Part shown: piece by piece, positions 20,138 through 63,990 of the stretch
Layout: each line of letters starts with the position of its first letter
Numbering within the stretch: the stretch's first letter is position 1
Source: a virus
Taxonomy: Duplodnaviria > Heunggongvirae > Uroviricota > Caudoviricetes
Direction: 5' to 3' (one strand)
DNA: 64,000 nucleotides
Virus record (IMG/VR): IMGVR_UViG_3300013426_000013
Location: 61,580 to 125,579 of that record
Notes under the pieces: model-generated
Databases searched by the model: none
What the model saw: the letters and a program-made list of their open reading frames with translations, nothing else
What the model was told of the DNA's origin: nothing
Position numbers and translations under genes: made by a program

Positions 20138-20147
20138 TCGTACGAAC
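20138..20147. promoter_or_regulatory. GTCGTACGA(A/C) palindromic late-promoter-like element, copy 1
   Basis: TTTAAGTCGTACGAACAA, ~45 nt upstream of the minus-strand fibre gene start. The same core occurs 9 times in total, always in front of structural genes. Confidence 0.5.
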
Positions 20148-20177
20148 AATTTGACTTGTAAATTTTATAAAACTACT

Positions 20178-20186
20178 CGTACGACT
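20178..20186. promoter_or_regulatory. TCGTACGAC element, copy 2
   Basis: CTCGTACGACTCG, ~45 nt upstream of the plus-strand glycine-rich pseudogene at 20231. Confidence 0.45.
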
Positions 20187-20230
20187 CGATGTTCTTGAGT
20201 GTAAGAGTTTTAATTAGAAGGAAATTTTAC

Positions 20231-20548
20231 ATGCCAATTTTTAAAGGAAGTACTCGACTCTCCGGTAAAGAGATAAATCTCAACATGTTTATGCCGGATT
20301 ATTCAAAAGGTTTTGCAATTACAGCGCCATACACGTGTACACAACGTGGTTTAGTTTGGTGCTGACAAGTCTCCTCAAATAGAGACACTTGGCTTTTAGT
20401 AAACAATATAGAAGTAGCAAGAATGTACGATTTAGGGGATTCAGGCTCATGTGGTGGTAACGGTTATGCATGGGTTTCTGTTGGCGATGTAATATCGATT
20501 CGTGGAACCGCACCCACTATTTTAAGGTTTTACCCAATGAAGGCATAA
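20231..20548 (+). pseudogene. degenerate, frameshifted remnant of a glycine-rich structural paralog
   Basis: The first frame gives MPIFKGSTRLSGKEINL... (compare MPIYKGNKSIS at 61108), stopping after 44 aa. A second frame continues GDSGSCGGNGYAWVSVGDVISIRG, resembling the Gly-rich family core. Confidence 0.4.
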
Positions 20549-20621
20549 ACAAATTTCTTGAAAAAGTTTGTGTTTTATGATAACTTAAGTTCAATGATTT
20601 CGAAATGAAAGGTTGAACTGA

Positions 20622-20942
20622 ATGGATTATGATATTTTAGCATTGTCACCTGATTATGCTCGAATTTGGAATGTGCCTAATTTTTTGTTAGCGGCCTGTT
20701 TATTGTCTTGTATTTATTTAACTGTTTATCTAATAAAATTTCAAGAGAGATTGGTTGAGACAAATAAATATAAATTTTTATTTTATATTTTAATAGTCAC
20801 TGTAATTGATGCTACTTTTTTATTTATGTGCTACAAAAGGTTGTCATTTGATGACATTTTTGCGATGATTGTCCTTGCGCCTTTAGTTTATTTCTTTAAA
20901 GAAATGTTTTTTGAAATTTTTGAATATAAGAGAAACAAATGA
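20622..20942 (+). CDS. small membrane protein
   Basis: 106 aa with three predicted TM helices. RBS GAAAGG. Confidence 0.45.
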   Translation: MDYDILALSPDYARIWNVPNFLLAACLLSCIYLTVYLIKFQERLVETNKYKFLFYILIVTVIDATFLFMCYKRLSFDDIFAMIVLAPLVYFFKEMFFEIFEYKRNK

Positions 20943-21280
20943 GACATTTTTATTGGTTTGGTGGGTATATTAAAAAACGCAATAGTTGTCAACGTGTTGA
21001 ATTTATTGTATCCAAAGAAGAAGCGAAACTTTACAAATTTGTCGACTATAAGCTTGTTGAAGAAAAGAATTCGTCGTCAAAAGATTTATGGAGTGATGCA
21101 TCAAGTATGATTCAAAAAGCTGGTCATTGGAGTGACGAAGCGGATGCAGCTTTAGCTTTTAACGGTTATTTGTGGTCTGAAATTACAAGACAAGAATTTA
21201 ATGAAATTTATAAAGCTGGAACTGTAGAAGAAAAAGACTTGCGAATGATTTACTTGCAGTATTTGAAAGAAAAAGACTAA
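20939..21280 (+). CDS. hypothetical protein
   Basis: 113 aa, start overlapping the previous stop (ATGA). Confidence 0.45.
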   Translation: MRHFYWFGGYIKKRNSCQRVEFIVSKEEAKLYKFVDYKLVEEKNSSSKDLWSDASSMIQKAGHWSDEADAALAFNGYLWSEITRQEFNEIYKAGTVEEKDLRMIYLQYLKEKD

Positions 21281-22245
21281 TGTCAAATAATAAACTAATT
21301 GATTGGTGGTTTCGGCAGTTTGATATCTCTAATGAAGAGATGAAGCTATTAAAATCATATGAAACAGATTTTGAAACAAAAGATGTTGAGTACTTTTATG
21401 ATTATGTAAAAGAAAAAGCATTGTCTATGCTTCCTGTACGTACATTTAATTATAATGTTCATTTTGACACGTGTGCGACAAATATTATTGATTGGTTATT
21501 TCAACAATTTGTAGATGATGATACATTAGTCATTACTACAATGAGCGAGCATCCGTCAGTTAAAAAGAATCTTGAGAAATGCAAGAATGTATTGTACATA
21601 TGTTGCAACGGTAAAGTTATTGAAGACTTTTACAAGAAATCAGAACAAATTCGTAATTTTAAAAGGGTTTTTGTTTATAGCATAGCATTGTCTGTAGGTG
21701 ATTGTCAAATTACGTTTAATGATATTATGAAAGATTTAAAACGTGATTTAGATTTGAGGCATATTCAATCTGTGTTTGTATTGGATGCAGTGCAAGAGTT
21801 GTTTATGCTACCGCGTGATTATGCGCTGTATGATTATGTTATAGGTACAGCACACGCGTTTGTAACACAATATGATACTGGTATTTTGTTTAGTAGAGAA
21901 TATGTTGAATCAACGAAAGAGTGCTTATCACGTGGAAATCAGTATTTAGATTTGTTATCTATTTTGATTAGAAATAAAGAGAAATTATATCAATTTAAGT
22001 ATGTGATGACACAAGTGTTTGGAAGTTATTTAGCAACAGACAACGCCTTAAGTGTTACGGAAAATGGTCCTTATGTATTTAATTTGGTTGATAAAAAGAA
22101 TAGATTGATTGGCATTACAGAAGCTGATCCTATTGCACAGCCTGAAAATACAAACGCAACTTTACGAGCATGTGAATCTTTACTAGATAAAGAAAAATTC
22201 ATCAATAAAGTTGAAACTATCAAATATTTATTATCGGAGAATTAA
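21280..22245 (+). CDS. cysteine-desulfurase-like (class V aminotransferase fold) protein lacking the PLP lysine, paralog 1
   Basis: Motifs TTMSEHPSV (compare IscS ITSxxEHxAV), LDAVQELF (compare VDAAQSVG) and DYVIGTAHAFVTQYDTGILF, which aligns with SufS/IscS [20 protein letters not shown] except that the Schiff-base Lys is Ala. About 320 aa, shorter than IscS. Confidence 0.55.
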   Translation: MSNNKLIDWWFRQFDISNEEMKLLKSYETDFETKDVEYFYDYVKEKALSMLPVRTFNYNVHFDTCATNIIDWLFQQFVDDDTLVITTMSEHPSVKKNLEKCKNVLYICCNGKVIEDFYKKSEQIRNFKRVFVYSIALSVGDCQITFNDIMKDLKRDLDLRHIQSVFVLDAVQELFMLPRDYALYDYVIGTAHAFVTQYDTGILFSREYVESTKECLSRGNQYLDLLSILIRNKEKLYQFKYVMTQVFGSYLATDNALSVTENGPYVFNLVDKKNRLIGITEADPIAQPENTNATLRACESLLDKEKFINKVETIKYLLSEN

Positions 22246-22247
22246 TA

Positions 22248-23108: not shown

Positions 23109-23148
23109 TACTATAAACAATAATAAACTAATTGATGCTAGGTGCTTA

Positions 23149-25563: not shown

Positions 25564-25862
25564 TGATGAAGGTAAATAGCATGAAATTGTGTAAAAGTAA
25601 ATTTAAAGAAAAGGCCAATTATTTTTATCTTGATGCTGTTGATTACGTTAATGCTATTGATTTGAACAATTTTGTGATCCCTGAAAAGGTAGAGTTTACA
25701 TCAATCAAACAAATGGTTGAATATGCAATGGAATTAGTACCTGCTACTGCATTAGAGTCTTTTGCCAGTTTTCATTATATCAAAAATGATGTAATGAAAG
25801 AAGAAATTGCAATGTTGTTCAAATACGACAATAGTGGAAATTTACAAACATTTAAATGCTAA
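25560..25862 (+). CDS. hypothetical protein
   Basis: 100 aa, start overlapping the previous stop. Confidence 0.4.
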   Translation: MMMKVNSMKLCKSKFKEKANYFYLDAVDYVNAIDLNNFVIPEKVEFTSIKQMVEYAMELVPATALESFASFHYIKNDVMKEEIAMLFKYDNSGNLQTFKC

Positions 25863-26215
25863 ACCATTGAAATTGTTATATATCCATCACCAGATTTAAA
25901 TCTTTGAGTGTGTTTTACGTTCGTACATAAATCTGGGTTTGTGTATGAAGAACCACCTCCGCCGCCAGCACTACAAGTACCAACTTTTTTAACTAACCCA
26001 CTATCGCCGCCACCGCCGCCACCAACAACAGTAATTGTTAATGATAATAATTCTTTAGGTAAAGTGAAGCTATATGTTCCTGCTGCATTAAAAATTTTGT
26101 TTTCTGTCGTCTGAACTTTAGTGACATAAACAAGTGTCGATCCTTTATATATGCGTCTTGCTTTTTTGCTATTTGCGTTAATGATGCTGATGTTTGTAGT
26201 TTTGAAAAGTGACAT
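25859..26215 (-). CDS. glycine-rich structural protein family, member
   Basis: 118 aa with a TYSFTLPKELLSLTITVVGGGGGGDSG core shared with 49592, 49981, 60455 and 48962. A GTCGTACGA element lies ~50 nt upstream, at 26265. Confidence 0.55.
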   Translation of the reverse strand: MSLFKTTNISIINANSKKARRIYKGSTLVYVTKVQTTENKIFNAAGTYSFTLPKELLSLTITVVGGGGGGDSGLVKKVGTCSAGGGGGSSYTNPDLCTNVKHTQRFKSGDGYITISMV

Positions 26216-26264
26216 TTTAATAACTTTATGTAATTTATAAATAATCTATTTTAAGAACATAAAG

Positions 26265-26273
26265 TCGTACGAT
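26265..26273. promoter_or_regulatory. GTCGTACGA element, copy 3
   Basis: CATAAAGTCGTACGATAAATTTG, upstream of the minus-strand gene 25859-26215. Confidence 0.45.
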
Positions 26274-26342: not shown

Positions 26343-26702
26343 TCACACTTCAAAAACGTAAGGAACTTCATCCTCGCGAATTTCAAAGATTTTATCATAT
26401 GTTTTGACATAACCTTGTTCAACCAGGTATTCAACAAAACCATAGAAGGGTGATTTAGCATCTTTTAACAATGCGTCTTTATACATTTTTCTTAAGTTGA
26501 AATCTTTAACAACAAGAAAAGTTGTGTGTTTTGCATCAGCATCATTATCAGCGAATTCGTTTAGTTCGATTAACTCACCAGCATGACAATCGAAACCTTC
26601 AGGTTCATAAGTATCCCAATCACGTTCAATAGCGTCTTCATTTAAGAATGAACGAACGAATTTACGATATGATTCTTCGAGATTAATTTTGGAATCAGAC
26701 AT
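26343..26702 (-). CDS. hypothetical acidic protein
   Basis: 119 aa with no motif. The terminator follows directly. Confidence 0.5.
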   Translation of the reverse strand: MSDSKINLEESYRKFVRSFLNEDAIERDWDTYEPEGFDCHAGELIELNEFADNDADAKHTTFLVVKDFNLRKMYKDALLKDAKSPFYGFVEYLVEQGYVKTYDKIFEIREDEVPYVFEV

Positions 26703-32673: not shown

Positions 32674-33015
32674 ATGACTAATTGTTTAATGAATGCTACA
32701 TACACAAAAATGCAAGAAAGATTATTGTCAGATGATAATCTGAAAGTATTTACAGTGTGTTGTGATATTGATAAAAATGAATTCTTTTTTATCGAGCGTG
32801 TTGATTCTGATGCTGTAATTACAAACAACAACCGTTATAAAGATTATATCAGTTTGTGGGATTACCAGTTTGACAGATTGTCAGAAGAAGGTGTTAAGTG
32901 GATTAAACGGTTGTTAGATCGTGAAGGCATTATGATAGTAACAAAATGTAGCAATAAAGATGATTGCGTTAAATTGGTTAAGGAGTTGGAAAAGATGAAA
33001 TTTGCCGTCCACTAA
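32674..33015 (+). CDS. hypothetical protein
   Basis: 113 aa with an RBS GGTAGGTGA. Confidence 0.45.
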   Translation: MTNCLMNATYTKMQERLLSDDNLKVFTVCCDIDKNEFFFIERVDSDAVITNNNRYKDYISLWDYQFDRLSEEGVKWIKRLLDREGIMIVTKCSNKDDCVKLVKELEKMKFAVH

Positions 33016-33263
33016 ACATCATAATCGCTTGAAGTCTGTTTGTTTAAAACTTCTTCTTCATGAGCCTTTTGACAATGATTACGATAACCTGTAAAGATGG
33101 CAAAAGAGATATCAATAATAAAACATGTCACTATAAAAAATAGTTTGCCTTCATATGCTTTTCTGTAGCTACGGGCAGCAAATGTTTCATCAGGGTAACC
33201 AAACAGAATGCTGTTTAGTAATTGACTAATTGATATCAAAATGTTTTTTATGTATTGTTTCAT
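33012..33263 (-). CDS. small membrane protein
   Basis: 83 aa with two TM helices. It is the only minus-strand gene in this block. Confidence 0.4.
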   Translation of the reverse strand: MKQYIKNILISISQLLNSILFGYPDETFAARSYRKAYEGKLFFIVTCFIIDISFAIFTGYRNHCQKAHEEEVLNKQTSSDYDV

Positions 33264-37692: not shown

Positions 37693-38331
37693 ATGAAAAA
37701 GTTTAATCTGAAATTGGGAAATAACTTTTGTCCTTTTTGTGGAAGTGAATTAACATATAACGATGAATATAAAGTAGTTTATTGCAAAACATGTAAAGAA
37801 AATGGACATACTGTTCAGTTTAAATATAAAGATGATCCGCAAGAAGCTTTTGATTATGCCAATACACGTAATGGTGAAAATGAGCTTTTAGAAAAGTTGC
37901 AAGACCTTTATGCATACTTAAAACAGTTAGGTATTGAAGGCCAGAATCTTGAAGATATTTCTGTGGCATCTGAAGGTGAATTGCCAAACAATGGTTGGAT
38001 TATCACTGAAGAAGCTGTTGCATTGCCTTGCGAAGAACCTCATGATGAAATGTATTCGCATTTAGTTACAGACAAAACCATTAATTTATCTGATCGTCAA
38101 GAAGTCTGCAATGTCATTCATTGTATTAATGTTACATATGTAATGAAAGTCCTTGACATATACATTCCAAAAAGATATAATGCAAAACAGAAAGAAGTTT
38201 TAACAAAGGTTTGCTCAAAGTATCCGAAAGATACTAAAATTGAAGTCGAATATTTGACAGAAGCTAAAGGCAAACAGTTTGAAACTTTTGATGGGTTAAG
38301 TGACTTTTTACTATTTTTGGATACAATCTAA
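37693..38331 (+). CDS. zinc-ribbon protein
   Basis: 212 aa with an N-terminal CPFCGSEL ... YCKTCKEN CxxC-CxxC ribbon. It directly precedes the radical-SAM array. Confidence 0.5.
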   Translation: MKKFNLKLGNNFCPFCGSELTYNDEYKVVYCKTCKENGHTVQFKYKDDPQEAFDYANTRNGENELLEKLQDLYAYLKQLGIEGQNLEDISVASEGELPNNGWIITEEAVALPCEEPHDEMYSHLVTDKTINLSDRQEVCNVIHCINVTYVMKVLDIYIPKRYNAKQKEVLTKVCSKYPKDTKIEVEYLTEAKGKQFETFDGLSDFLLFLDTI

Positions 38332-39194
38332 TGGATATCAAACCAATCACGGAATTTCTTCTTTGGGATAATTGCAATAACAATTGTAAGTTTTGTTTTC
38401 AACGGAAGAATCCAAGATTGTTTTCATTAGAGGAACAAGAACAAATTCTTGACAATGTGTTAAGGTTTCTTAATTCAGATGAATATATAAAAGGAAGTCA
38501 TGTACTCGTTGTTGGCGGTGAACTATTTGATCGTGATCGCGGGTTCATGCTTCCTTTTTTTGAACAGATTATTGAAAAAATGTTGTCTGACGACATTGAT
38601 ATTCTGTATTTGAATACGAATTTGATTTACGATCAAACATATTCAACAATGTTGAAACCTGTTTTAAAAATGTTCGATGCAAATAGTCTGTTTGACAGAT
38701 TAAAGTTCACAACATCTTTTGATATTGCCGGAAGGTTTAAAACGAAACAGGCACGTTCATTAGTATTGTCAAACCTATTGTTGTTAAAAGATGATTTTCC
38801 TAATCTTCGAACTGTTGTTAACATCATCTTAACAAAACAGTTTTGTGAAAGTGTTATCAATGAAAAGTTTGACATCTTTCATTTCATGGAATCGTTTAAT
38901 GTTAATACAAATCTAATTCCATACATTGTGTTGAATAAAGAGTTGTGTGCTGATAGAGAAACGATATTTGAAGCTTTAAGGAAGATTAATGAACAGCACC
39001 CTGAATATATCAGACAATACGTAGATAATATGGATTTGAGACATAAAAGGTATCTGTATGCTTGCTATCCAGATAATTTAAAATTGTGCAGTTGTGATGA
39101 TTCAGAATGTGGCCATTCTGTAAACTTTAAGAAATATAGCGATGACCATGAAGCATGTTTTGTTTGTGATTTAAAGAGAGTTTTTGATCTATGA
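38331..39194 (+). CDS. radical SAM enzyme, tandem paralog 1
   Basis: 287 aa with N-terminal NCNNNCKFCF (CX3CX2C [4Fe-4S]/SAM motif) and VVGGELFD (GGE SAM-binding motif). C-terminal cysteine cluster CSCDDSECGHSV ... CFVCD. Confidence 0.7.
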   Translation: MDIKPITEFLLWDNCNNNCKFCFQRKNPRLFSLEEQEQILDNVLRFLNSDEYIKGSHVLVVGGELFDRDRGFMLPFFEQIIEKMLSDDIDILYLNTNLIYDQTYSTMLKPVLKMFDANSLFDRLKFTTSFDIAGRFKTKQARSLVLSNLLLLKDDFPNLRTVVNIILTKQFCESVINEKFDIFHFMESFNVNTNLIPYIVLNKELCADRETIFEALRKINEQHPEYIRQYVDNMDLRHKRYLYACYPDNLKLCSCDDSECGHSVNFKKYSDDHEACFVCDLKRVFDL

Positions 39195-40147
39195 CTAAAG
39201 TAAACACAAATGTAGTAGATTGTGGTGAACATCGTTTTCTACAATTTAATTTATGGAAAGATTGCAATAATAATTGTGAATTTTGTTTTTATCGTGGTCA
39301 CAAATTGTTATCAAATGAAAAGAAAATTTCATCAATCAATTTTGTTAAAGAAAGATTGTTGGATTTGGAAGAATCTGATTTCTATAATGAAATTGGTTTC
39401 ATTGGTGGTGAGTTTTTTGATAATCAGATTGAAGATGAATCTGTGAAAAAGGCTTTTTACAAATTATTTGATATTTTAAAAGACAAACGAGAGCGCGGAA
39501 AGCTTGACCGTATTTATATTACAACTAATCTGATTTTTGATTCGAACAGATTGTTGAGACCGTTTCTTGACTACTTAAAAGAATTAAATTTATTAGATAT
39601 CACATTGTTGTGTACTTCATATGATTTGAAGTATCGGTTTCATAATGAAAAAGCATTACAGTTGTGGCAAACCAATATGGTTGAATTGTCAAAAGATTAT
39701 AACACAATGATTCATACAGAGATTATTGTGACGCAAGCATTTATTGACGCTGTAATGAAGGGAACATTTAATATTGAAGAGTTCTGTGAAAAATACAACA
39801 CACGTATTGATTATATTGAACCATCTTCAGGGTTTTATTTTTATGATAAAAAAGAGTGTGAGAAGGAAGTTAAAGACTTCTTCCCAAAACGTGAAGATTT
39901 CTTAAACTTTATTCAATATACAGCAATTGATAACCATTGGATTGATTTAACAAAATTCTTATCAATGCGCATTCGTTCTGATACGTTATATTGTCATTTA
40001 AAAGGACAGTGGCGAAAATTAGAAGGTCGTCGATCTCAATACATTTGTCCAACTTTAGGTTTGTATAATGTGACATATGAGAATGGTTATTGTGATTCAA
40101 AAGAGTCAATGGTTGAAGATGTTAATGCATTTTTAGGTAGTGTTTAA
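39191..40147 (+). CDS. radical SAM enzyme, tandem paralog 2
   Basis: 318 aa with DCNNNCEFCF and FIGGEFFD. The C-terminus differs (YCHLKG ... YICPTLG ... YCDS). Confidence 0.7.
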   Translation: MTKVNTNVVDCGEHRFLQFNLWKDCNNNCEFCFYRGHKLLSNEKKISSINFVKERLLDLEESDFYNEIGFIGGEFFDNQIEDESVKKAFYKLFDILKDKRERGKLDRIYITTNLIFDSNRLLRPFLDYLKELNLLDITLLCTSYDLKYRFHNEKALQLWQTNMVELSKDYNTMIHTEIIVTQAFIDAVMKGTFNIEEFCEKYNTRIDYIEPSSGFYFYDKKECEKEVKDFFPKREDFLNFIQYTAIDNHWIDLTKFLSMRIRSDTLYCHLKGQWRKLEGRRSQYICPTLGLYNVTYENGYCDSKESMVEDVNAFLGSV

Positions 40148-44454: not shown

Positions 44455-45420
44455 ATGAAATTAATTGCTAATTGGTTGAACAGTTTCAACTACTCAAAAG
44501 AAGAGCTTGCTAAATTGACTAGCATACGTGATTCTGAACAAATTGTTGAAGATAATTTTGAAGAAGAAAAAAATAGAACTTTTTCTATGCTTCCATTCAA
44601 TAGCTTTACGCATAAAGAATTATCAGTGGATACGTGTGCTACAAACATTATAAATAAATTGTTTGATAAATATGTTGACGATGATACTTTAGTTATTACT
44701 ACAGGTAGTGAACATCATTCTGTTAAAAATAATTTTAAGAAATGCAAGAATTTAATTCATTTTGTTTGTCGAGGTGAGATTCGTAAAGATATAGACATTA
44801 TAAAAGAAATCAAACCTTTTAAAAAGGTATTCATTTATATGATTGCTTTAAGCGTTGGTGATACACATTATTTAAACAATTGTATTATTGAATGGTTGCA
44901 ACAAATTTTAAAAGAAAACAATAAACAGTTTGTTACTGTATTGGATGCTGTTCAAGAACTATTTCTATTGCCACGTGACTACTCTATTTATGATTATGTA
45001 GTAGGTACTTCACATGCTTTGATTCCAAATTATGATATGGGTATGTTATTTGGTAAATCAGACTTTTCTTATAAAGCAGGAAATTGGTTGAAAGATTTTA
45101 ACGATTGCATGTCAATTTTATTAAGAAATAGAGACAAACTCTATCAATTAAATGTAATTATGAGGCAGCATTTTGCTAAATTTACAACATTTGATAAAGA
45201 CTTAATTGATTCAAGTCGAGCGCCATACGTTTATAATTTATGTGACTATAAAAAACGTTTAGAAGGGTTAAATGATGTAGATTATGAGCACGGGGCAATT
45301 GTCCCGGGTGATTATACACCTGTAACTTTTCGAGCCTGTCCTTTCCTTGCACATCAAGAAAAGTTTATAGATAGGATACAACAAATAGACAATATTCTTG
45401 AAATAGATATTGGCAATTAA
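44455..45420 (+). CDS. cysteine-desulfurase-like protein lacking PLP lysine, paralog 3
   Basis: 321 aa with TTGSEHHSV, LDAVQELF and DYVVGTSHALIPNYDMGMLFG (Ser at the Lys position). Confidence 0.55.
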   Translation: MKLIANWLNSFNYSKEELAKLTSIRDSEQIVEDNFEEEKNRTFSMLPFNSFTHKELSVDTCATNIINKLFDKYVDDDTLVITTGSEHHSVKNNFKKCKNLIHFVCRGEIRKDIDIIKEIKPFKKVFIYMIALSVGDTHYLNNCIIEWLQQILKENNKQFVTVLDAVQELFLLPRDYSIYDYVVGTSHALIPNYDMGMLFGKSDFSYKAGNWLKDFNDCMSILLRNRDKLYQLNVIMRQHFAKFTTFDKDLIDSSRAPYVYNLCDYKKRLEGLNDVDYEHGAIVPGDYTPVTFRACPFLAHQEKFIDRIQQIDNILEIDIGN

Positions 45421-45457: not shown

Positions 45458-46069
45458 CTAAACAGTTGCTTTATTGATGTTGACCATTCTTTGTTGTTGG
45501 TCTGTTGTTCGATATAGTTGTTTATCAAACCAATCAAGACCTTCAATATTGTTTGGAACGATTGCAAATTTTAAATCATCTTTAAATTTAATTGAGTTAT
45601 CTTCAATAAAAGGTTTGAACATGTCTTTTACACAAACAAATGAACAATTCTTTAAAAGATAGTTTCTCAATTCAGAATATATTCCAAAAGCATCGAGATG
45701 ATCTAAACGAAGTAAAGTTTCATTGATTTTATTGTAGTCTTCTTCGTTTATTGTTGACATTGCACAACCACAAACGATCCTCGATTGTTGTGTTGAATCA
45801 TAACTTAATTGATTGACTGTAAGTATAACTAAATGTGTTTTATCAAAAAACACTCGCATCCTGACAAAACTAAACACGCCTTTATTTTCGACATCGTTTT
45901 CAGCATGGAATGAGAATTCCTTCAAATCATCTTTATTCCATTCATCACCTTTAACATATTGAGAAATATAGCTAAAATCTTCTTTAGCATATTTCATGTG
46001 CTTTTCTTCTAAAGGATGCCCATAGCTTTCTTTCATTAATTGCAAAAACAATTCAGTAAACGTTTTCAT
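45458..46069 (-). CDS. hypothetical protein
   Basis: 203 aa. Confidence 0.5.
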   Translation of the reverse strand: MKTFTELFLQLMKESYGHPLEEKHMKYAKEDFSYISQYVKGDEWNKDDLKEFSFHAENDVENKGVFSFVRMRVFFDKTHLVILTVNQLSYDSTQQSRIVCGCAMSTINEEDYNKINETLLRLDHLDAFGIYSELRNYLLKNCSFVCVKDMFKPFIEDNSIKFKDDLKFAIVPNNIEGLDWFDKQLYRTTDQQQRMVNINKATV

Positions 46070-48936: not shown

Positions 48937-48966
48937 AAAGCGGGGTTTAAAACCCCGCTTTTTATA
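48937..48966. terminator. bidirectional rho-independent terminator
   Basis: AAAGCGGGGTT-TAA-AACCCCGCTTT plus T-run between convergent genes. Confidence 0.7.
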
Positions 48967-49579
48967 TTGCTGTAACTTTTACGTATCCACCTAGTGCTGG
49001 ATATGATGCACTGTTTTGACCAGCATTATTATATCCTGAAGCACCCGGACCTGTTTGAGTATTGTCGAATGTCGAAACTGTTCTGGTTGAGCCTGGTGCA
49101 ACCCATGAATCATAAATAGCAAACCAATGGCCATTCGCCGGTGTGTTGTTACTAATTATTTGAAAATCTGTCCATAAAGACGTATCGAAACCACCTGTTG
49201 AATAACCAACAGCTTTTGTTCCATCCCCAACTTTACCGGAATTAAAAGCAGAACCAACTTGTTGTAGATTTCCTTGAGGTGCTATAAATATATTTGAAGA
49301 ATAGTCTGGTAGAGTTCCTACTCCTGAAGCAGCGCCTTCATGTGTCGGCGCTGGTAAAGATCCATTACCGAAATTTGTATTATCACCGCCGTTACCAACA
49401 AAAATATATAATTTCTGCCCAACAGTTTTTGGTTTAATCCTGATAACTCCACAACCTGAACCACTTGCTGTCGAACGTGACCAATAAACCTTATAACGTT
49501 TATCACTATGTTTGTTTAAACGGTTGTTTCTATTATGTTTTTTGATGTTGTTATTTAAAAAGTTTCCAACGTTAATCAT
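48962..49579 (-). CDS. glycine-rich structural protein family, member
   Basis: 205 aa with YIFVGNGGDNTNFGNGS and many G-x-G repeats. Confidence 0.5.
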   Translation of the reverse strand: MINVGNFLNNNIKKHNRNNRLNKHSDKRYKVYWSRSTASGSGCGVIRIKPKTVGQKLYIFVGNGGDNTNFGNGSLPAPTHEGAASGVGTLPDYSSNIFIAPQGNLQQVGSAFNSGKVGDGTKAVGYSTGGFDTSLWTDFQIISNNTPANGHWFAIYDSWVAPGSTRTVSTFDNTQTGPGASGYNNAGQNSASYPALGGYVKVTAI

Positions 49580-49591
49580 TCAATAATTCCT

Positions 49592-49852
49592 TTATAAATC
49601 GATTGCAGCACCTACAACTGGTGAACCCCCACCAACAATTACAATCTCTATCATTTGAGCTGTTGGCAGAATTAATTCATATTTTGTGCCGCCACCACCG
49701 CCGTTTGTTCCATATTTTTCAAACAGAATTGTACCTGTTGGTAATGCTTTTTGATAAAGTAACGTTGAACCTTGATAAATTTGAGAAATAGTTTTATCGC
49801 CTAATGTAATCAATGGCATTTCTTTTCCGTCATAAACAATCATATGAAACAC
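49592..49852 (-). CDS. glycine-rich structural protein family, short member
   Basis: 86 aa with GSTLLYQKALPTGTILFEKYGTNGGGGGTKYELILPTAQMIEIVIVGGGSP. Confidence 0.5.
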   Translation of the reverse strand: MFHMIVYDGKEMPLITLGDKTISQIYQGSTLLYQKALPTGTILFEKYGTNGGGGGTKYELILPTAQMIEIVIVGGGSPVVGAAIDL

Positions 49853-49910
49853 TTTCTAGTAACTAAATATTTAGTTGCATAAAATTACAACTAAAAGGAA
49901 GAACATGTAG

Positions 49911-49918
49911 TCGTACGA
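49911..49918. promoter_or_regulatory. TCGTACGAC element, copy 4
   Basis: ATGTAGTCGTACGACTCAAATC in a divergent intergenic region. Confidence 0.45.
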
Positions 49919-49946: not shown

Positions 49947-49955
49947 TCGTACGAA
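49947..49955. promoter_or_regulatory. GTCGTACGA element, copy 5
   Basis: ATTAAGTCGTACGAAACTTTG followed by TATAAT, ahead of the 49981 gene. Confidence 0.5.
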
Positions 49956-49980
49956 ACTTTGTTCTATAATTATAGTTTAA

Positions 49981-50664
49981 TTGTTATTTGTGTTTAGTGT
50001 TATGTCAATTTATAAAGGTAAAATCAAGCAAAATATAATATGTGAAGGTTTGAAAACAATTGAAAAGATCTGCAAAGGTTCAACAATTATATATGAAAAT
50101 AAGTTACCTGCTGGCCAAATTTTAGTTGAAACATCAACGCCAGGAACATATACATTAACAATTCCTAAAACACAAAACTATTATTTTATTGCAGTCGGCG
50201 CTTGTGGCGGTAGTGCATTGGGCGGTTCTGGGCACTATACAAATTGTAATGCTGCTGGTGGTTCTGGCGCATGTGCAGCTGGAACAATTAAATTAGCAAA
50301 AGGCACTATTGTCACTTATGTTGTAGGTGCATTAGGTGCAAATAACTCTGGGTACTCTGTCGGAAACTATCCGGCAAAAGCAGGTGGTGCATCGTCAGTT
50401 TCAATTCCTGGAAATTCTATAGCAACAGCGAACGGTGGTGGCGGTGCAATTGCACATATTCATACTTCACCAACAAGAACGCCATGTGCAGGTGGAACAT
50501 ATGCATTTGGGTCTGGTGTAACCGTAGACACATCTATAACTAAAAATGGCAACTCTGGTGTAAATGACTCCCCTGGCGCATCTGTTTACGGTGGTCATGG
50601 TAAAGGTAACCAAACAGGTACAACAAACGGTACACTTGGGTATTTTATTTTTAAAACAGCATGA
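49981..50664 (+). CDS. glycine-rich structural protein family, member
   Basis: 227 aa with MSIYKGK ... TYTLTIPKTQNYYFIAVGACGGSALGGSG. Confidence 0.55.
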   Translation: MLFVFSVMSIYKGKIKQNIICEGLKTIEKICKGSTIIYENKLPAGQILVETSTPGTYTLTIPKTQNYYFIAVGACGGSALGGSGHYTNCNAAGGSGACAAGTIKLAKGTIVTYVVGALGANNSGYSVGNYPAKAGGASSVSIPGNSIATANGGGGAIAHIHTSPTRTPCAGGTYAFGSGVTVDTSITKNGNSGVNDSPGASVYGGHGKGNQTGTTNGTLGYFIFKTA

Positions 50665-51767: not shown

Positions 51768-51802
51768 CAGCGGGTAGTTTTGTTACTACCCGCTTTTCTT
51801 TT
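51768..51802. terminator. rho-independent terminator
   Basis: CAGCGGGTAG-tttgtta-CTACCCGCTTTTCTTTT. Confidence 0.65.
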
Positions 51803-52019
51803 ATATTGCTAATTTAAACTCTGGTGACTTTATCGCTGAAATAAAATCTGGAAATTGTTTTACAACCGGCTCTATCATTTCGTTTTTTCTACACATGCAA
51901 GTTAACCCATTGCTATATAGGTAAAAACAAAACTCTTCTGAAACTTTAGTTATCAAGAATCTTTCACCACAAAAGGTTTCTCGTAACTGGAATGCTTTAG
52001 GGAGTGCTGATTTAGACAT
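51801..52019 (-). CDS. small hypothetical protein
   Basis: 72 aa with an RBS GGTGAA on the minus strand. Confidence 0.35.
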   Translation of the reverse strand: MSKSALPKAFQLRETFCGERFLITKVSEEFCFYLYSNGLTCMCRKNEMIEPVVKQFPDFISAIKSPEFKLAI

Positions 52020-56060: not shown

Positions 56061-56762
56061 TTAATCTAAATCATTTATCATATTCATGATCTTTTTATTC
56101 AAACCATGGTCTCTAACAACTAAAAACTCATTATTATTTCTTTTAACAACACCCAAGTTAGAAATCGCAGAATTATCAATTAAATCAGCAATAAACATAG
56201 CATCAGGTTTTTCAGTATATAAATAGTTAGAAAATTCTTGAATAAATTTATTTTTCTTGATAACATCATCATAATTATTGTGTAATTTAGCTAACTCATC
56301 TTTATTCAAATTAGCCGAAATAAATTCTTTATCATATTTTCTTGTAAAATAAATGTCTCCAAGAAGATAAAGAATTTTTCCGAAATCACTATGGGATATT
56401 CCTGTTAATTCTTTAAATTTTGATCTTGAAACATCTTTAGCGTATTCGCATTCTATCCAACTAAAATCATCAGCATGCCTATAAATTTTTGTAAAAATTT
56501 TATAATTAGCTTTCTTTTTATCGCATTCAAATTCATTTTGTTTGATACCAATTTCATTAAAAGCTAATTTTAAAACATGATTCATTTTTGGTAAATAAAA
56601 ACTTATACGAGTTGTACCTTTTCCAACAATTTTCAAAAATTTTTTACAATATTTTATTTTATCAGATAATTCTTTTTTAGAATTTAGCTCTGCAATGGAA
56701 AACATTGACTCTAAAAGTGTTTGAAATATTTCTTGTCTAAAGATTTCAATTAAATCACACAT
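56061..56762 (-). CDS. hypothetical protein
   Basis: 233 aa. Confidence 0.45.
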   Translation of the reverse strand: MCDLIEIFRQEIFQTLLESMFSIAELNSKKELSDKIKYCKKFLKIVGKGTTRISFYLPKMNHVLKLAFNEIGIKQNEFECDKKKANYKIFTKIYRHADDFSWIECEYAKDVSRSKFKELTGISHSDFGKILYLLGDIYFTRKYDKEFISANLNKDELAKLHNNYDDVIKKNKFIQEFSNYLYTEKPDAMFIADLIDNSAISNLGVVKRNNNEFLVVRDHGLNKKIMNMINDLD

Positions 56763-59326: not shown

Positions 59327-59668
59327 ATGAAACTGAACAAACCTTACACAAACACTCAGTATGCTGACCTTGCTGTTTATTGCAACAAGAACGGCTTAGT
59401 CATTGAAGATAAAGGTGATTATCTGGAAGCTGTCAATCCACCCGAACCGACTGATGAAGAAAAGCAGACTCGTGTAAGACAGGTCAGAAACCAGTATTTA
59501 CAAGATACGGATAAATATATCGCCCTGTCCGATTTCCCTATCACCGATGAGGAACGTGAGCTGTATAAAGCGTATAGAGTTTATTTGCGTGATTATCCTG
59601 AAACAGAAAATTGGTTCAAAACCGATCCGATGACGTTTGAGGAATGGCAGAAAGAAACCACGAATTGA
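59327..59668 (+). CDS. small tail-fibre-associated protein (assembly/chaperone-like), paralog 1
   Basis: 113 aa directly downstream of the fibre gene with the same elevated GC. Ends ... YLRDYPETENWFKTDPMTFEEWQ. Confidence 0.45.
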   Translation: MKLNKPYTNTQYADLAVYCNKNGLVIEDKGDYLEAVNPPEPTDEEKQTRVRQVRNQYLQDTDKYIALSDFPITDEERELYKAYRVYLRDYPETENWFKTDPMTFEEWQKETTN

Positions 59669-60142: not shown

Positions 60143-60385
60143 TTACTCTTTACAGTCCTCTACTCTGAAGCCACAACCATTTTTCCATAAAACTTTTTTT
60201 GGATATAGTTTTAAAGCGTTTTCAATAGCTATTGGTGAAATATCAAACTTAGCACAATTTCTAGAAGCACTTTCCACTCGACGTGTGTAGCTGATAAATT
60301 CTTTCATAGAAACAAATTTATTCGAATTCAATAGCGGAAATAGTACACGTTCAGCATCAAAGAATTTTGTCATAAAAACTTTCAA
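60143..60385 (-). CDS. small hypothetical protein
   Basis: 80 aa with an RBS GAGGTTGA on the minus strand. Confidence 0.4.
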   Translation of the reverse strand: MKVFMTKFFDAERVLFPLLNSNKFVSMKEFISYTRRVESASRNCAKFDISPIAIENALKLYPKKVLWKNGCGFRVEDCKE

Positions 60386-60454
60386 CCTCGTTTTTCTTAA
60401 ATGTAATCTTATTTTAAGATTACATAATTCATCCTTAAAATCAAGGATAAAATT

Positions 60455-61108
60455 TTATATTGTCCTGATCTCAACCCAACCAGATTGTCCAGTAGCACCA
60501 CCCGCTTTTGTTGATGCATTTGTTCCACTTCCGCCAGCGCCTGGACCTGTTAAAGTCCCATCAACGATCGAATACCCGCCGTGACCACCAGCAACCCAAC
60601 CGTCACCAACATTTCCGGCTATGTTTTTAATCACTATAAATCCAGAATTATAACCTGAACAAGCTTCACCAGCCTTTTGAGCTTCAGCAGAGATGTGTCG
60701 TTGTGCCCCACCACCATAACCTCCTCCGATTGAACACAAACCTTCTATTGTGGTTGTTCCCCCACGACAAGCAATACCAGAATTTGAGGTGTTTCGGTTA
60801 CCGTTTGAACCGCCAGCCCCCACGGTAATATTAAGAACTGTTCCTTTAGATAATTTAATTTGCCCGATAAACACACCACTCGAGCCACCAGAAGCAGTAC
60901 AACCGCCGCCACCTCCACCGACAACCGTGATACGATAGTTTTGTGATGTAGGAATTGTGTAACTATAAGTCCCTGCTGTACGTGTAGAAAATAAGACAGT
61001 GTTCACAGGTAGAATCTTAAACATTAATGTAGAAGCATGATAAACTTTTCCAATATTTCGACTACATTTAATGGTACTAATCGATTTGTTTCCTTTATAT
61101 ATTGGCAT
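60455..61108 (-). CDS. glycine-rich structural protein family, member
   Basis: 217 aa with MPIYKGNKS ... TYSYTIPTSQNYRITVVGGGGGGCTASGGSSG. Confidence 0.55.
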   Translation of the reverse strand: MPIYKGNKSISTIKCSRNIGKVYHASTLMFKILPVNTVLFSTRTAGTYSYTIPTSQNYRITVVGGGGGGCTASGGSSGVFIGQIKLSKGTVLNITVGAGGSNGNRNTSNSGIACRGGTTTIEGLCSIGGGYGGGAQRHISAEAQKAGEACSGYNSGFIVIKNIAGNVGDGWVAGGHGGYSIVDGTLTGPGAGGSGTNASTKAGGATGQSGWVEIRTI

Positions 61109-61177
61109 AGTTTAATTAATCTTTCAGAGTGTTAATGATAGCTAAAGTTTTAAAAATACATAATTTAAGAACATTGA

Positions 61178-61187
61178 ATCGTACGAC
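61178..61187. promoter_or_regulatory. ATCGTACGAC element, copy 6
   Basis: TTGAATCGTACGACTGTTTTTATAAAA in a divergent intergenic region. Confidence 0.45.
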
Positions 61188-61217
61188 TGTTTTTATAAAA
61201 ATTGAAATTTAATATGT

Positions 61218-61227
61218 ATCGTACGAA
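61218..61227. promoter_or_regulatory. ATCGTACGAA element, copy 7
   Basis: TATGTATCGTACGAATCGAAGGTCTATAGTT, ~45 nt upstream of the 61272 start. Confidence 0.45.
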
Positions 61228-61271
61228 TCGAAGGTCTATAGTTAAATGGCTCAAGAACGCAGGGAATAGCA

Positions 61272-62525
61272 ATGTCTAACTATCAAATAAATCAATCAGT
61301 TGTTCAAGATTTGCAGACAGACAAAAACACAATAATTGATAAATTTAATTCGAATAGAATTGTGTCAATTCCACAGGATATTGTTATTACATTTGATAGC
61401 GGCGTGTTGACATTGATATCAGGTAGTAAATTGTATGTCCCGAATGGTTTTGAATCAGATGGCACAACACCAAAATTTGATATATTTATTTTGCAAAAAG
61501 ATGTTATATCGACAAGAAATTCATCAGTAAAAGAGTTTTATATGTATGAAACAAAGAATGATGTAATATCTCAATGGGGTAATTCAAGTTTTTGCATAAT
61601 TAGTTCAGGAACGACAGCGCCAACAGGAAAAACTTTTATGTGCTGGTATGACTTGAATGATAATAAAATTAAAGTAACAAAAGATTCGGGAGCAACATGG
61701 GAAGATCGCGGAATGAGTTTTCCTTTCTGTTTGGCTACATCTAGTGATACAGCAATAAAACAAGTTGATCAATTGTTTAATGGTTTTGGATATATTGGTT
61801 CAACTTGTTATATTCTTCCAGGTGTTACTGGATATATTCCAAAAGGGTTAAATTCAGACGGAACATTAATTAATGAAATAATTACACAAACAAAAGTGTC
61901 TATAACAACTGTTACTTCATCATGGGGTACTGGTTCAGAAACCTTTTTCTTTAATGGTGTTGATAGTTATATTCATCGTGCATCAAAAAATTGTTTTTAT
62001 CAAGCAACGCAACCTATAGTTAAAGATGTTGAAAATTATTGGTTTAACACAGCATCTGGAAAATATTATGAAACAAAAGATTCTGGATTAACATGGACAG
62101 AATTTAAAGCAATTCCAGCATTCACAATTACTTTTGATAATAGTTTAATTACTTCTTTAAAATCTTGTGGTGTACATGAACTAGTTAATTCAAATGCAAC
62201 GAATTTATCTGACTATGGAAGAGAAATTATTTCTGGTTTAGGAAAACCTTCAGACAAATATATTGATCTGACTGTCGGGGCTTCTGGAACGACTTATATT
62301 GCTCCAATGAATGGCTATATTTATTGTAGTGGTCATGCCAATGCTTCACCTGCATATATATCAATTGATATTCCAAACTTACAATATTGTGGAATAAATG
62401 GTAATGAAGGACATGATTTAACAACAAATCAAATAGCATTAAAAATTGGTGATAAATTTACTCTACGCTATAGTAACACAACAATTAATGCTTTTAGGTT
62501 TGTTTATGATGAAGGGTGCTCTTAA
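61272..62525 (+). CDS. tail-fibre-like structural protein, paralog B
   Basis: 417 aa with an N-terminus paralogous to 18774-20096(-) and 62611-63909 (IPQDIVITFDSGVLTLISGSKLYVPNGFESDGTTPKFDIFILQKD). Confidence 0.6.
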   Translation: MSNYQINQSVVQDLQTDKNTIIDKFNSNRIVSIPQDIVITFDSGVLTLISGSKLYVPNGFESDGTTPKFDIFILQKDVISTRNSSVKEFYMYETKNDVISQWGNSSFCIISSGTTAPTGKTFMCWYDLNDNKIKVTKDSGATWEDRGMSFPFCLATSSDTAIKQVDQLFNGFGYIGSTCYILPGVTGYIPKGLNSDGTLINEIITQTKVSITTVTSSWGTGSETFFFNGVDSYIHRASKNCFYQATQPIVKDVENYWFNTASGKYYETKDSGLTWTEFKAIPAFTITFDNSLITSLKSCGVHELVNSNATNLSDYGREIISGLGKPSDKYIDLTVGASGTTYIAPMNGYIYCSGHANASPAYISIDIPNLQYCGINGNEGHDLTTNQIALKIGDKFTLRYSNTTINAFRFVYDEGCS

Positions 62526-62537
62526 ATAGTCTGCTAA

Positions 62538-62547
62538 ATCGTACGAC
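62538..62547. promoter_or_regulatory. ATCGTACGAC element, copy 8
   Basis: CTAAATCGTACGACAGATTTAATAATAAAT, ~65 nt upstream of the 62611 start. Confidence 0.45.
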
Positions 62548-62610
62548 AGATTTAATAATAAATATTTAAATCAATGTTCTTTTTATTAGTTAAAATAAAG
62601 GAGCATTGAC

Positions 62611-63909
62611 ATGGTGTCATATACAGTTAAACAAACAGTTGTTGAAAATTTAAATGCAGATCTTGATGGAAAACAACCAGCGGGCGATTATCCTACAAAT
62701 GCTTCTTTAACAGAATCTCTACAATCAAATCTGTTGAATTACACAACGAACCGAATTCTTGAAATTCCACAGGATATAAAGCTTGAGTTAAATAACGGCA
62801 CATTGACATTAAAAGCTGGCAGCAAGGTTTATATTCCAAACGGATTTGAATCTGATGGAACAACACCCAAATTTGATGTGTTTATTGTTAGCAAAGACGT
62901 ATTGCTATCAGCTTCACTGGTAAGCAACTATTATACTTCCGGCTATGGTTGGTGTTTCAATAAAAATTTGAACAAAATACAAGGTGGAAATTTTATAGGA
63001 AATCAATTTCAAAGTGGCACTTTTGTGCAAACGGTATGCTGTATGTTTTACGACACCGCTGCAAATATTATAAGATATACCGCTGATACAGGTGCCACTT
63101 GGGAAGAAGGTTATTCTTTACCATTTGCTGTTACTCAACTGGTACACGGAACCGGTATAACATCCATTGACCAAGTCTTTAATGGTTTTGGGTATATCGG
63201 TTCAACAGAATTTGCATTACCAGGTGTTAAATATCAGTTTGCTGTTGGTACAGACAATAACGGTTTATTTAGTTCTGTTGTAAAAACTTCAAACACAGTA
63301 ACAATCAGAAATAACTTAACAACGGAAACAGGTGAAGCTGTTTGTTTTTTGACCGAAGATTTTCAACCATATGCGGTTTGGCAAAATAACTATCACACTT
63401 CAGCAACACAACCAGATGACCAAACTGGAGCTGTTTGGTTTAACGGCAACGTTTTTTATCAAAATATTGGTACAAATGATTCGCCTAATTGGAAACAAAA
63501 GAATTTAATTCCTTGTTTTAACTATTCTGTGAATCAAGGAACAGTAACACAATTTAAAGGCTATGAAGTTAGCAAATTTAACTCATATCAAGACTTTGAG
63601 CTTGCTGAAAAACCATTACCTTCAAACAACTTTATTAATTTGACATTAGGTGCATCTGGAACAATCTATACAGCGCCAGCAAACGGTTGGATAAATATGA
63701 GCGTTAATTTAGCTGTTAATAATTATATGGCGTTTTTTAATAAAAACTCTGCCAACGTATCAGAGCTAATTAATATGCAATCAGCTGGCATTAATCAAAA
63801 TTATACAATTGGTTTTCCAATTAGAGCTGGCCAAAAGTTTCGTGTCCAGTACGATGCTTACAACAATTTAAATAGCTTTAGATTTTATTTTGCTCAAGGA
63901 GAATTGTAA
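62611..63909 (+). CDS. tail-fibre-like structural protein, paralog C
   Basis: 432 aa with LNYTTNRILEIPQDIKLELNNGTLTLKAGSKVYIPNGFESDGTTPKFDVFIVSKD, nearly identical to the N-terminal block of paralog A. Confidence 0.6.
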   Translation: MVSYTVKQTVVENLNADLDGKQPAGDYPTNASLTESLQSNLLNYTTNRILEIPQDIKLELNNGTLTLKAGSKVYIPNGFESDGTTPKFDVFIVSKDVLLSASLVSNYYTSGYGWCFNKNLNKIQGGNFIGNQFQSGTFVQTVCCMFYDTAANIIRYTADTGATWEEGYSLPFAVTQLVHGTGITSIDQVFNGFGYIGSTEFALPGVKYQFAVGTDNNGLFSSVVKTSNTVTIRNNLTTETGEAVCFLTEDFQPYAVWQNNYHTSATQPDDQTGAVWFNGNVFYQNIGTNDSPNWKQKNLIPCFNYSVNQGTVTQFKGYEVSKFNSYQDFELAEKPLPSNNFINLTLGASGTIYTAPANGWINMSVNLAVNNYMAFFNKNSANVSELINMQSAGINQNYTIGFPIRAGQKFRVQYDAYNNLNSFRFYFAQGEL

Positions 63910-63980
63910 AATTTCTATTAAATGTCTAAAAATTTTACAGTTTATCTACTGTGTCTGCAGTTTTAATATTCACCATTAAA

Positions 63981-63990
63981 GTCGTACGAC
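63981..63990. promoter_or_regulatory. GTCGTACGAC element, copy 9
   Basis: CATTAAAGTCGTACGACAAATTTTTAA at the window edge, presumably ahead of the next structural gene. Confidence 0.4.

Follow-up and report, generated by a model that had tools for sequence, protein, structure and literature searches.

An 8-bp palindromic box upstream of putative receptor-binding genes in an uncultured huge phage

What does a short palindrome mark when it recurs between the genes of a large uncultured phage? The question is raised by a 64-kb stretch of virus DNA (the window; IMG/VR record IMGVR_UViG_3300013426_000013, positions 61,580 to 125,579), in which the 8-mer TCGTACGA, here called the box, is found upstream of glycine-rich and fibre-like genes. 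A prior inspection of the letters alone, the sequence-only reading, had taken it for a mark of structural and late genes and for the binding site of a late transcription factor or sigma factor. Our analysis covered the window and about 10 kb added by locus L007 (window position = L007 position + 59474), which together represent 74 kb of a genome of approximately 211 kb. Rather than the general late promoter of this phage, the box most probably represents a site that controls transcription of one module. Judging from the sequence, we consider it rather probable that it is an operator specific to a module of receptor-binding protein (RBP) genes, superimposed on a general promoter class which lacks a −35 hexamer.

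The box and the genes that it precedes

TCGTACGA occurs nine times in the window, where 0.22 copies are expected by chance, and none of 100 dinucleotide shuffles reached nine. The copies start at positions 20138, 20177, 26265, 49911, 49947, 61179, 61219, 62539 and 63982; the sequence-only reading had reported nine palindromic copies, a count which is confirmed, with its coordinates correct to within 1 nucleotide (nt). The 9-mer GTCGTACGA matches at 10 strand-specific positions (0.05 expected) and covers eight boxes, all but the one at 61219, which is missing the flanking G on both sides. Variants with a single mismatch add nine further sites against approximately ten expected, that is, the chance level, and the site is therefore sharply defined and all-or-none. 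All nine boxes are intergenic, as had been claimed, so that there is no spread inside coding regions; they are confined to six of the 45 gaps which, by a crude open reading frame (ORF) call, make up 9.2% of the window. When the extension is included, 11 of 11 copies are intergenic, a result shared only by the overlapping CGTACGAC, and an unbiased survey of 6- to 8-mers over the same DNA places the box among the most intergenic-enriched 8-mers, its sub-words also ranking at the top for such enrichment.

Within the 74 kb the 11 boxes are arranged either as divergent pairs, namely A (20138/20177), B (49911/49947), C (61179/61219) and, just beyond the window, G (window-equivalent 66985/67024; L007 7511-7557 spans the pair), or as the lone boxes D (26265), E (62539) and F (63982). 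The three divergent pairs within the window, which had also been recognized from the letters alone, have start-to-start distances of 39, 36 and 40 nt. The proposed placement upstream of glycine-rich or fibre-like genes on both strands stands; the distance from box to start codon is about 42-72 nt, and not 45-65 nt as first given.

The box has perfect twofold symmetry, and its eight positions are invariant in 38 of 38 copies from the window with L007 and six related loci. Palindromes account for 256 of the 65,536 possible 8-mers, and the rarity of such sequences indicates that an invariant one has a symmetric binder. The relatives (L009, L011, L012, L013, L064 and L066) carry fibre proteins that are 37-58% identical to the query, and possess the invariant 8-mer at syntenic positions: in the gap between the Gly_rich_2 and fibre genes, before the next fibre gene, and in the gap between a 105-residue gene and either a glycine-rich (ALK_LTK_GRD) or a 247-residue gene. 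This conservation at syntenic sites makes a protein-binding transcription signal the most reasonable reading. Among the paralogous cassettes of the window phage itself, similarity is limited to 20-38 nt around the boxes; the box and the motif GTTCTW, which is described below, thus stand out as identical segments amid diverged DNA, a pattern that favours selection over recent copying.

These comparisons also bear on the idea that the box is devoid of a function of its own, being either a relic of duplicated cassettes or a by-product of inverted pairs which act as DNA or RNA hairpins. The downstream genes are indeed paralogous and their upstream regions descend from duplications, but the flanks have diverged to noise, yet all eight positions have stayed invariant in 38 copies, before fibres of as little as 37% identity. 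Pairs A and B folded better than shuffled sequence (z −3.3 and −5.1), whereas pair C was no better than chance (z −1.3); lone boxes cannot form a hairpin, and hairpin potential arises automatically from two back-to-back promoters. A hairpin or cruciform as the general function was rejected, since it fails for the lone boxes and pair C, and that the box should have no function whatsoever is scarcely credible.

The 11 boxes correspond one-to-one to 11 genes, each box facing exactly one, and these genes belong to two paralogous families. Six of the 11 form a glycine-rich group, the products of which mostly start MPI(Y/F)KG; five of these match Pfam PF21722 (Gly_rich_2) or are visibly glycine-rich, and the sixth (20231, broken) is assigned by position only. 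The other five encode a fibre-like family, four members of which have about 417-446 residues and one 247, mostly starting M-S-x-(Y/F)-T-(V/I)-K-Q-T; neither a Pfam domain nor a PDB sequence match was found for this family. The AlphaFold model of the 432-residue member is all-beta with a mean pLDDT of 77.8. Its best fold matches among viral models are to baseplate, tail-fibre, receptor-binding and C1q-like proteins, and those among solved structures are to lambda gpJ and TNF-like domains; all of these matches are weak, with TM-scores of 0.26 or less. Tail-assembly chaperones (PF16778) neighbour the box-gene families and, on account of this context and the weak fold matches, both families are treated here as a putative RBP module.

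The claim that the box is a mark of structural or late genes at large does not hold, as it is confined to these two families. Probable virion genes without a box include a 719-residue gene at 46770 and a 653-residue gene at 57353 with two chaperone-like genes after it; about ten other non-early transcription units likewise lack one, and the label is consequently too broad. By context only, the 653-residue protein is a probable tail fibre.

A partner motif and three classes of upstream signal

One further question is what accompanies the box. A second motif, GKTCT, lies downstream of 38 of 38 boxes (those of the window with L007, and of L009, L011, L012, L013, L064 and L066), exactly 6 nt away in 31 instances and 29 nt away in seven. 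The 6-nt class comprises all pair members and the lone box D, and forms a rigid 20-bp composite, TCGTACGA-N6-GTTCTW. To the 29-nt class belong the lone boxes E and F and the orthologs of E, each of them before a fibre gene that follows another one in tandem. The usual window form of the motif after a box is ATGTTCTT, and five of the ten copies of that sequence in the window adjoin a box.

GTTCTW occurs 60 times in the window, and 21 of these copies are intergenic (35% vs 9.2% of the sequence); no other permutation of the letters of GTTCTT shows as strong an intergenic enrichment. Seventeen of the intergenic copies are oriented toward a start codon at a distance of 14-64 nt, which in most cases is 26-46 nt. 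The motif precedes approximately 11 genes which possess no box: 3569-4072, 17676-18713, 26343-26702, 33012-33263, the long operon from 35805, 45458-46069, 46282 (followed by the 719-residue gene), 51801-52019, 52919, 56061-56762 and 57353. In relatives, orthologs of several of these genes are likewise preceded by the motif, in some instances although the flanking sequence has diverged. Because of its presence before genes without a box, GTTCTW is a better candidate than the box for a general middle/late promoter element. There is a weak tendency for TAnnnT to follow it at a fixed offset, T and A each being found in 11 of 19 aligned units at +4/+5.

The sequence-only reading had placed a TATAAA-like hexamer 6-12 nt after each box. 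Such a hexamer can be seen by eye at about six of the nine, but it is not constant, and is unremarkable in DNA of 70% A+T (the window has a G+C content of 30%). Its further proposal, that TTGACA-N17-TATAAT promoters serve other genes and not the box genes, is borne out: TTGACA-N16-18-TAnnnT has 16 matches in the window, eight of them intergenic, which precede mostly small genes, and none lies beside a box, while a scan of three box gaps for sigma-70-type promoters gave zero to one weak matches, not above shuffles. The window contains three classes of upstream signal, namely sigma-70-like, GTTCTW alone, and box plus GTTCTW. Two other sequences are found near the boxes. In each of the fibre/glycine-rich pairs A, C and G, one box is followed after 4-5 nt by TTTTATAAAA, which reads in the direction of the fibre gene every time; neither pair B nor the second type of pair in the relatives has it. 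The only boxes that TTTATAAA adjoins are box D and those of pairs A, C and G; its other copies are scattered, mostly within genes.

On the reading that we favour, GTTCTW and a loosely conserved TAnnnN hexamer 1-5 nt downstream would constitute the core middle/late promoter element, which host RNA polymerase would read with the help of a phage factor. If the TA hexamer acts as the −10 element, then GTTCTW would lie near −20, the box of the 6-nt class would be centred at approximately −30, in the place of the −35 hexamer, and the box of the 29-nt class would be found about 23 bp (some two helical turns) further upstream; these values are estimates. A symmetric, dimeric, phage-encoded regulator would bind the box and co-regulate the RBP genes apart from other late genes, and in the divergent pairs each box would serve its adjacent promoter. 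Activation is favoured over the alternatives of repression or timing control, since a −35 element is lacking from the promoters, and its place, or a position upstream of it, is taken by the box. Being short conserved repeats that lie where modules meet, the cassettes may also serve as recombination points at which RBP modules are reshuffled; by analogy with the PeSL cassettes of T4-type phages, we regard such reshuffling as a probable side effect.

Several points weigh against an operator of this kind. All positions relative to +1 have been deduced from the DNA sequence, and the only DNA-binding family detected, in approximately 74 of 211 kb, is the GcrA-like protein described below. Helix-turn-helix (HTH) dimers typically use longer sites with separated half-sites; an abutted palindrome of 8 bp suggests a ribbon-helix-helix (RHH), bZIP-like or enzyme-like (DNA-modifying) reader. 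A single polymerase or sigma factor could equally well recognize the rigidly spaced 20-bp composite found in the 6-nt class. Lastly, in the related locus L065 the ortholog of site E reads TCGTACAA and no other box is present in 21 kb; because the fibre gene and GTTCTT are intact there, with a mismatched box only, the box may be dispensable or tolerant of change.

Gene-class-specific promoter or operator motifs are, as such, conventional and already known from phages. What is new is the TCGTACGA-N6/N29-GKTCTW composite, the many-membered putative RBP regulon, its presence in an unstudied clade of huge phages, and the link to a GcrA homolog and a breakpoint. Transcription in huge uncultured phages is almost unstudied, and the above provides a three-class promoter map for one clade, in which many putative receptor-binding genes would constitute a separately marked regulon with one signal per gene. 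The 20-bp composite offers a handle for finding the regulator, for predicting host-range genes in related metagenomic phages, and for asking whether adhesins are regulated or reshuffled as a unit.

Candidate readers of the box

Which protein might read the box? The proposal of a late factor or sigma site made in the sequence-only reading survives in so far as the box is most reasonably interpreted as a transcription signal bound by a protein, but a sigma factor that reads the box as a −35 element fits poorly. Under that alternative the box would be a core promoter element, either −35-like for a phage sigma factor, or part of a promoter of approximately 20 bp for a phage RNA polymerase which transcribes late genes. 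The composite TCGTACGA-N6-GTTCTW is indeed rigidly spaced in 31 units, no sigma-70-type promoter is present in the scanned box gaps, and the screen reached about one third of the genome, in the rest of which a polymerase or sigma gene could lie. The sub-word TACGACT resembles part of the T7 promoter, which we take as a lead only. However, perfect twofold symmetry is unexpected of a sigma or polymerase element; seven units have the box 29 nt, and not 6 nt, from GTTCTW; approximately 11 GTTCTW units function, if at all, without a box; and the box is limited to RBP genes and does not extend to all late or structural genes. Furthermore, no sigma, RNA polymerase, HTH, RHH or recombinase family was found among the 79 window proteins screened, nor was an RNA polymerase or sigma factor among the Pfam marks of the annotated neighbour loci. 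A core element of this type we consider unlikely.

The layout can be compared with those of known promoters. Sigma-70 promoters have TTGACA-like and TATAAT-like hexamers 16-18 nt apart, and of such pairs the scanned box gaps contain no more than shuffled sequence. The T4 late promoter, which stands upstream of all late genes, has TATAAATA at −10 as its sole conserved element, whereas the box has an invariant partner, GKTCT. A T7-like polymerase promoter is a contiguous block of some 19-23 bp that takes in the start site; the 6-nt class forms a composite of 20 bp, and the 29-nt class and the box-less units break this contiguity. The sigma-54 promoter (TGGCAC-N5-TTGC) has by inspection a similar two-block geometry, but its GG and GC blocks are absent here. 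The arrangement is like the operator of a dimeric factor, with a twofold-symmetric site (38 of 38) at a fixed position, 6 or 29 nt, from GKTCT, the binder itself being a prediction only.

Activator- or repressor-controlled late promoters, such as A2b/A3 of phi29 with protein p4 and those with the Mor/C dyad of Mu, have symmetric sites between divergent promoters. With these the box shares a short symmetric site upstream of or over the −35 region, a poor −35 hexamer, a defined gene class and the divergent layout; it differs in being only 8 bp with abutted half-sites, in having two fixed offsets, and in its restriction to RBP genes. In the middle promoters of T4 a MotA box replaces the −35 element; it is asymmetric, stands at a single position, and serves a whole temporal class. 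The similarity is that a phage box would sit near −30 in lieu of −35, over a −10-like element read by host polymerase. The present box, in contrast, is symmetric, has two positions and precedes RBP genes only, and no MotA or AsiA homolog was detected.

The one candidate reader that was found is a GcrA-like protein of 180 residues (L007 8432-8974; window-equivalent 67906-68448), the gene for which starts 88 nt after the gene that pair G would drive. It matches Pfam GcrA over its full length (3.3e-31), falls under the NCBIfam equivalog cut-off, and aligns to both the DNA-binding and the sigma-70-interacting domains of Caulobacter GcrA (PDB 7ye1, 5yix, 5yiu). A GcrA-family gene lies within or beside the RBP cluster in every clade locus that reaches that block. 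Caulobacter GcrA is a monomeric sigma-70 cofactor with an m6A-methylated YGAKTCG element and, owing to a long linker, acts from approximately −20, approximately −30, and +5 to +30 (PMC9976885). These several offsets of the Caulobacter protein make the phage GcrA-like protein a reasonable candidate for a reader of the box, or of GTTCTW, at more than one offset.

A special case of the operator reading would thus have the box as the cis element of this phage cofactor: the C-terminal domain would tether it to host sigma, the N-terminal domain would find the box at variable offsets, and polymerase would be recruited to the RBP promoters that lack a −35 hexamer. The location of the gene in the relatives and the alignment of both domains are consistent with this, and the several offsets of Caulobacter GcrA would accommodate the two box spacings (PMC9976885). 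On the other hand, the Caulobacter protein is a monomer on a methylated YGAKTCG, while the box is a palindrome containing neither GANTC nor GATC; YGAKTCG overlaps the edge of only four of the 11 boxes and is barely enriched overall (21 observed vs 14±2.8 expected); and the sole methyltransferase seen is Dam/DpnM-like. In addition, L065 retains its GcrA gene but has only a degenerate box, the protein falls short of the equivalog threshold, and GTTCTW is an equally good candidate target. Compared with the GcrA promoters of Caulobacter (PMC9976885, PMC4647560), in which the element has several offsets on sigma-70 promoters, the phage encodes a two-domain homolog, but its GANTC-free palindrome and the type of its methyltransferase set it apart. 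That the box is the target of the GcrA-like protein we regard as quite unlikely.

The methyltransferase in question (14253-15104) belongs to the Dam family, its closest match being DpnM/M.DpnII (7.8e-73); it is encoded inside a tRNA cluster and is presumably GATC-specific. GATC is strongly under-represented in the window plus extension, at 120 observed vs 211±15 expected. Canonical GcrA (GANTC) and Dam (GATC) sites were rejected as real signals on the basis of their counts and positions.

A fuller scenario can be drawn, in which a phage of a low-GC, probably Firmicutes, host uses the GcrA-like cofactor, which is of alphaproteobacterial type, or a partner of it to read the box and so switch on at least 11 individually promoted RBP genes, the cassettes of which double as host-range breakpoints. 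We offer it as a decidedly speculative proposal. If it is true, a cis element would for the first time be assigned to a GcrA homolog of a phage, and host range would have a dedicated regulon apart from other late transcription.

Rearrangement, relatives and genomic setting

A final question is whether the boxes have a role in rearrangement. In L066 (1-12706) a block homologous to 20.6-28.5 kb of the window is reversed and joined via a box pair to the fibre and GcrA block; relative to the window phage this is the equivalent of an inversion of approximately 47 kb with its ends at pairs A and G, a single event. The reverse complement of pair A has 38 identical nt in common with pair G, two short Logan contigs terminate inside pair A, and the RBP gene content between boxes differs among the relatives. 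These data would suit the idea that the boxes, or the box pairs of approximately 70 bp, are recombination sites, site-specific or homologous, which invert or swap RBP cassettes and thereby alter host range. No recombinase family, however, was found in the sweep of the window; all seven contigs with the 440-residue fibre show the same junction at pair A where they reach it, the other strains being colinear; and no alternative junction at pair A was found within the population, that is, among the contigs carrying that fibre. The fixed spacing of +6 or +29, the orientation of the boxes to start codons and the lone boxes would all be left unexplained, and eight invariant nt in variable flanks are too short for homologous recombination. 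As the primary role of the box, recombination is therefore very improbable.

The crossover sites of Gin, Cin and Hin are found inside fibre coding sequence, next to the gene for a serine recombinase. The boxes resemble these in being inverted repeats associated with alternative tail-fibre genes, and in that one lineage differs by an inversion ending in the repeats; they differ in their position between genes and their link to promoters, the sweep of the window revealed no recombinase, and no inversion within the population was seen. A precedent for recombination comes from the PeSL cassettes of T4-type phages, which are reported to join a terminator stem-loop to an early sigma-70 promoter and to flank the genes of hyperplastic regions (PMC2839356, PMC4122927). 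Both systems have short conserved promoter-linked repeats which flank variable genes and coincide with rearrangement junctions, here in a single event, but the box cassette is bidirectional, not sigma-70-like, tied to RBP genes, and contains no stem-loop terminator.

Two observations on variability in this region may be added. Patches of fibre genes at 19517-19926 (L072/L076) and 62266-62537 (L070) are replaced in otherwise 99%-identical strains, and are strain-variable parts of the putative RBPs. Genes of the TnpB/IS605 type (Cas12f1-like_TNB, OrfB_IS605) lie beside RBP cassettes in L011 (4136-5329), L065 (205-1392) and L066 (7353-8492), the insertion in L011 splitting the fibre gene downstream of a box pair.

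The individual sites are as follows. Box A-left (20138..20145) serves the minus-strand gene 18774-20096, which encodes a fibre/RBP-like paralog of 440 residues with the N-terminus MSSFTIKQTTVNQL; its GTTCTT (20126..20131, minus strand) is 6 nt after the box and 29 nt before the ATG at 20096. Box A-right (20177..20184) serves the plus-strand ORF starting at 20231, with GTTCTT (20191..20196, plus strand) 6 nt after the box and 34 nt before the ATG. This ORF is the remnant of a broken gene (20231..20620) which starts MPIFKGS and has the position of a glycine-rich gene in relative L066; it is frame-split, with a stop after 44 codons and a continuation in another frame (e.g. MYDLGDSGSCGGNGYAW...), and strain L067 has only a 41-residue ORF there. 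The lone box D (26265..26272), with 6-nt spacing, serves the minus-strand Gly_rich_2 gene 25859-26215 (PF21722), the product of which has 118 residues here and 240 in strain L067; GTTCTT (26253..26258, minus strand) follows the box by 6 nt and precedes the ATG at 26215 by 37 nt. Hairpins after the stop of gene 26343-26702 lie directly upstream of box D in the direction of gene 25859-26215.

Box B-left (49911..49918) serves a glycine-rich gene on the minus strand (49592-49852, with its continuation in 48962-49579) and has GTTCTT (49899..49904, minus strand) 6 nt after it. Box B-right (49947..49954) serves the plus-strand Gly_rich_2 gene 50002..50664 (N-terminus MSIYKGK), GTTCTA (49961..49966, plus strand) being located 6 nt after the box and 35 nt before the ATG at 50002. 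At pair C, the left box (61179..61186) serves the minus-strand Gly_rich_2 gene 60455-61108 (217 residues; N-terminus MPIYKGN), with GTTCTT (61167..61172, minus strand) 6 nt after it, and the right box (61219..61226) serves the plus-strand fibre/RBP-like paralog 61272-62525 (417 residues), with the variant GGTCTA (61233..61238, plus strand) 6 nt after the box and 33 nt before the ATG at 61272. The lone box E (62539..62546), of the 29-nt class, begins 13 nt past the stop of this preceding fibre gene and serves the plus-strand gene 62611-63909, which encodes the 432-residue fibre/RBP-like paralog (P0001) modelled above; its GTTCTT (62576..62581, plus strand) lies 29 nt after the box and 29 nt before the ATG at 62611. 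The lone box F (63982..63989) has the same 29-nt spacing and serves the 446-residue fibre paralog 64054-65394 beyond the end of the window, where both this gene and GTTCTT (window-equivalent 64019-64024) were read in L007.

How widely is the system distributed? Three more distant phages with homologous fibre domains (L081-L083) have neither motif, and the box/GTTCTW system is specific to one clade (contigs of approximately 150-310 kb). A literature search for TCGTACGA revealed no use as a phage signal or promoter among the 15 top-ranked of 314 matches, and the accession LR756497 did not turn up in any paper. A scan of IMG/VR with the pattern AAGAACAT-N4-box gave five single, chance-like matches, and one with box-N26-34-box gave 50 loci, none of them from this clade; scans of metagenomes and GTDB for a box pair plus GKTCT returned only strains of the same phage and unrelated high-GC matches. 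The core palindrome is shared by unrelated IMG/VR phage contigs of 35-50% GC (L015, L016, L024, L027, L033, L039, L046, L051; L017, L025). One group among these has pairs of TATTCGTACGAATA-like sites 26 nt apart and another has three copies of TCGTACGA overlapping a TTGACA hexamer, and both layouts look like operators.

The 432-residue protein (62611-63909) has an exact match on metagenomic contigs of 211,111 and 182,832 bp, and homologs of it are encoded by contigs as large as 313 kb, one of which is NCBI record LR756497.1 (309 kb); since they sit on contigs this large, the window is attributed to an uncultured huge phage. Megablast of 27 kb of the window against approximately 50,700 isolated phage genomes gave no match, and tblastn of the fibre protein against isolated phages gave a single weak match, with no annotated relative in that collection. 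A fibre-protein search of IMG/VR found no related loci, no clade member was recovered from the IMG/VR sequences scanned or searched, and most window proteins have no PHROG or Pfam family. Contigs L076 and L080 (GTDB CALBJM010000217.1 and CALBJM010000188.1) are 98-99.7% identical to the window and are binned in the metagenome-assembled genome SRR1747018_bin.99, which carries the label uncultured Erysipelotrichaceae; the binning either points to the host or is an artefact. As a hint of the host it is weak, and it agrees with the TTGACA-N17-TAnnnT promoters and the strong AGGAG ribosome sites of the window, and the host is probably a low-GC member of the Firmicutes.

Several other features of the window were recorded. 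The tRNA cluster (14032-17417) contains ten genes (Ser x2, Ile-tat, Tyr, Thr, Leu x2, Pro, Asn and Gln), eight of which are confirmed by Rfam. A 755-residue fusion protein (6009-8276) combines a polynucleotide kinase-like P-loop, a metallophosphatase and a T4 Rnl1-type RNA ligase (phrog_8238, 3e-154), and looks like a tRNA-repair enzyme; its nearest relatives, approximately 32% identical, are in Staphylococcus, Bacillus and Alicyclobacillus phages. A run of genes for proteins of about 290-330 residues occupies 21280-22245, 38331-42987 and 44455-45420, and at least three of these (21280, 42049 and 44455) matched the same relative protein in blastp. Four window proteins have radical SAM matches, and a weak QueC match lies near the same run; this region may represent a DNA or nucleotide modification pathway. 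The operon from 35805 has GTTCTT alone as its upstream signal. Two independent assemblies (182,832 and 211,111 bp) end within 90 nt of each other at approximately 59389-59475, a break across which the window continues, and the sequence here, around the end of the 653-residue fibre gene and its chaperone, is unusually G+C-rich (42%).

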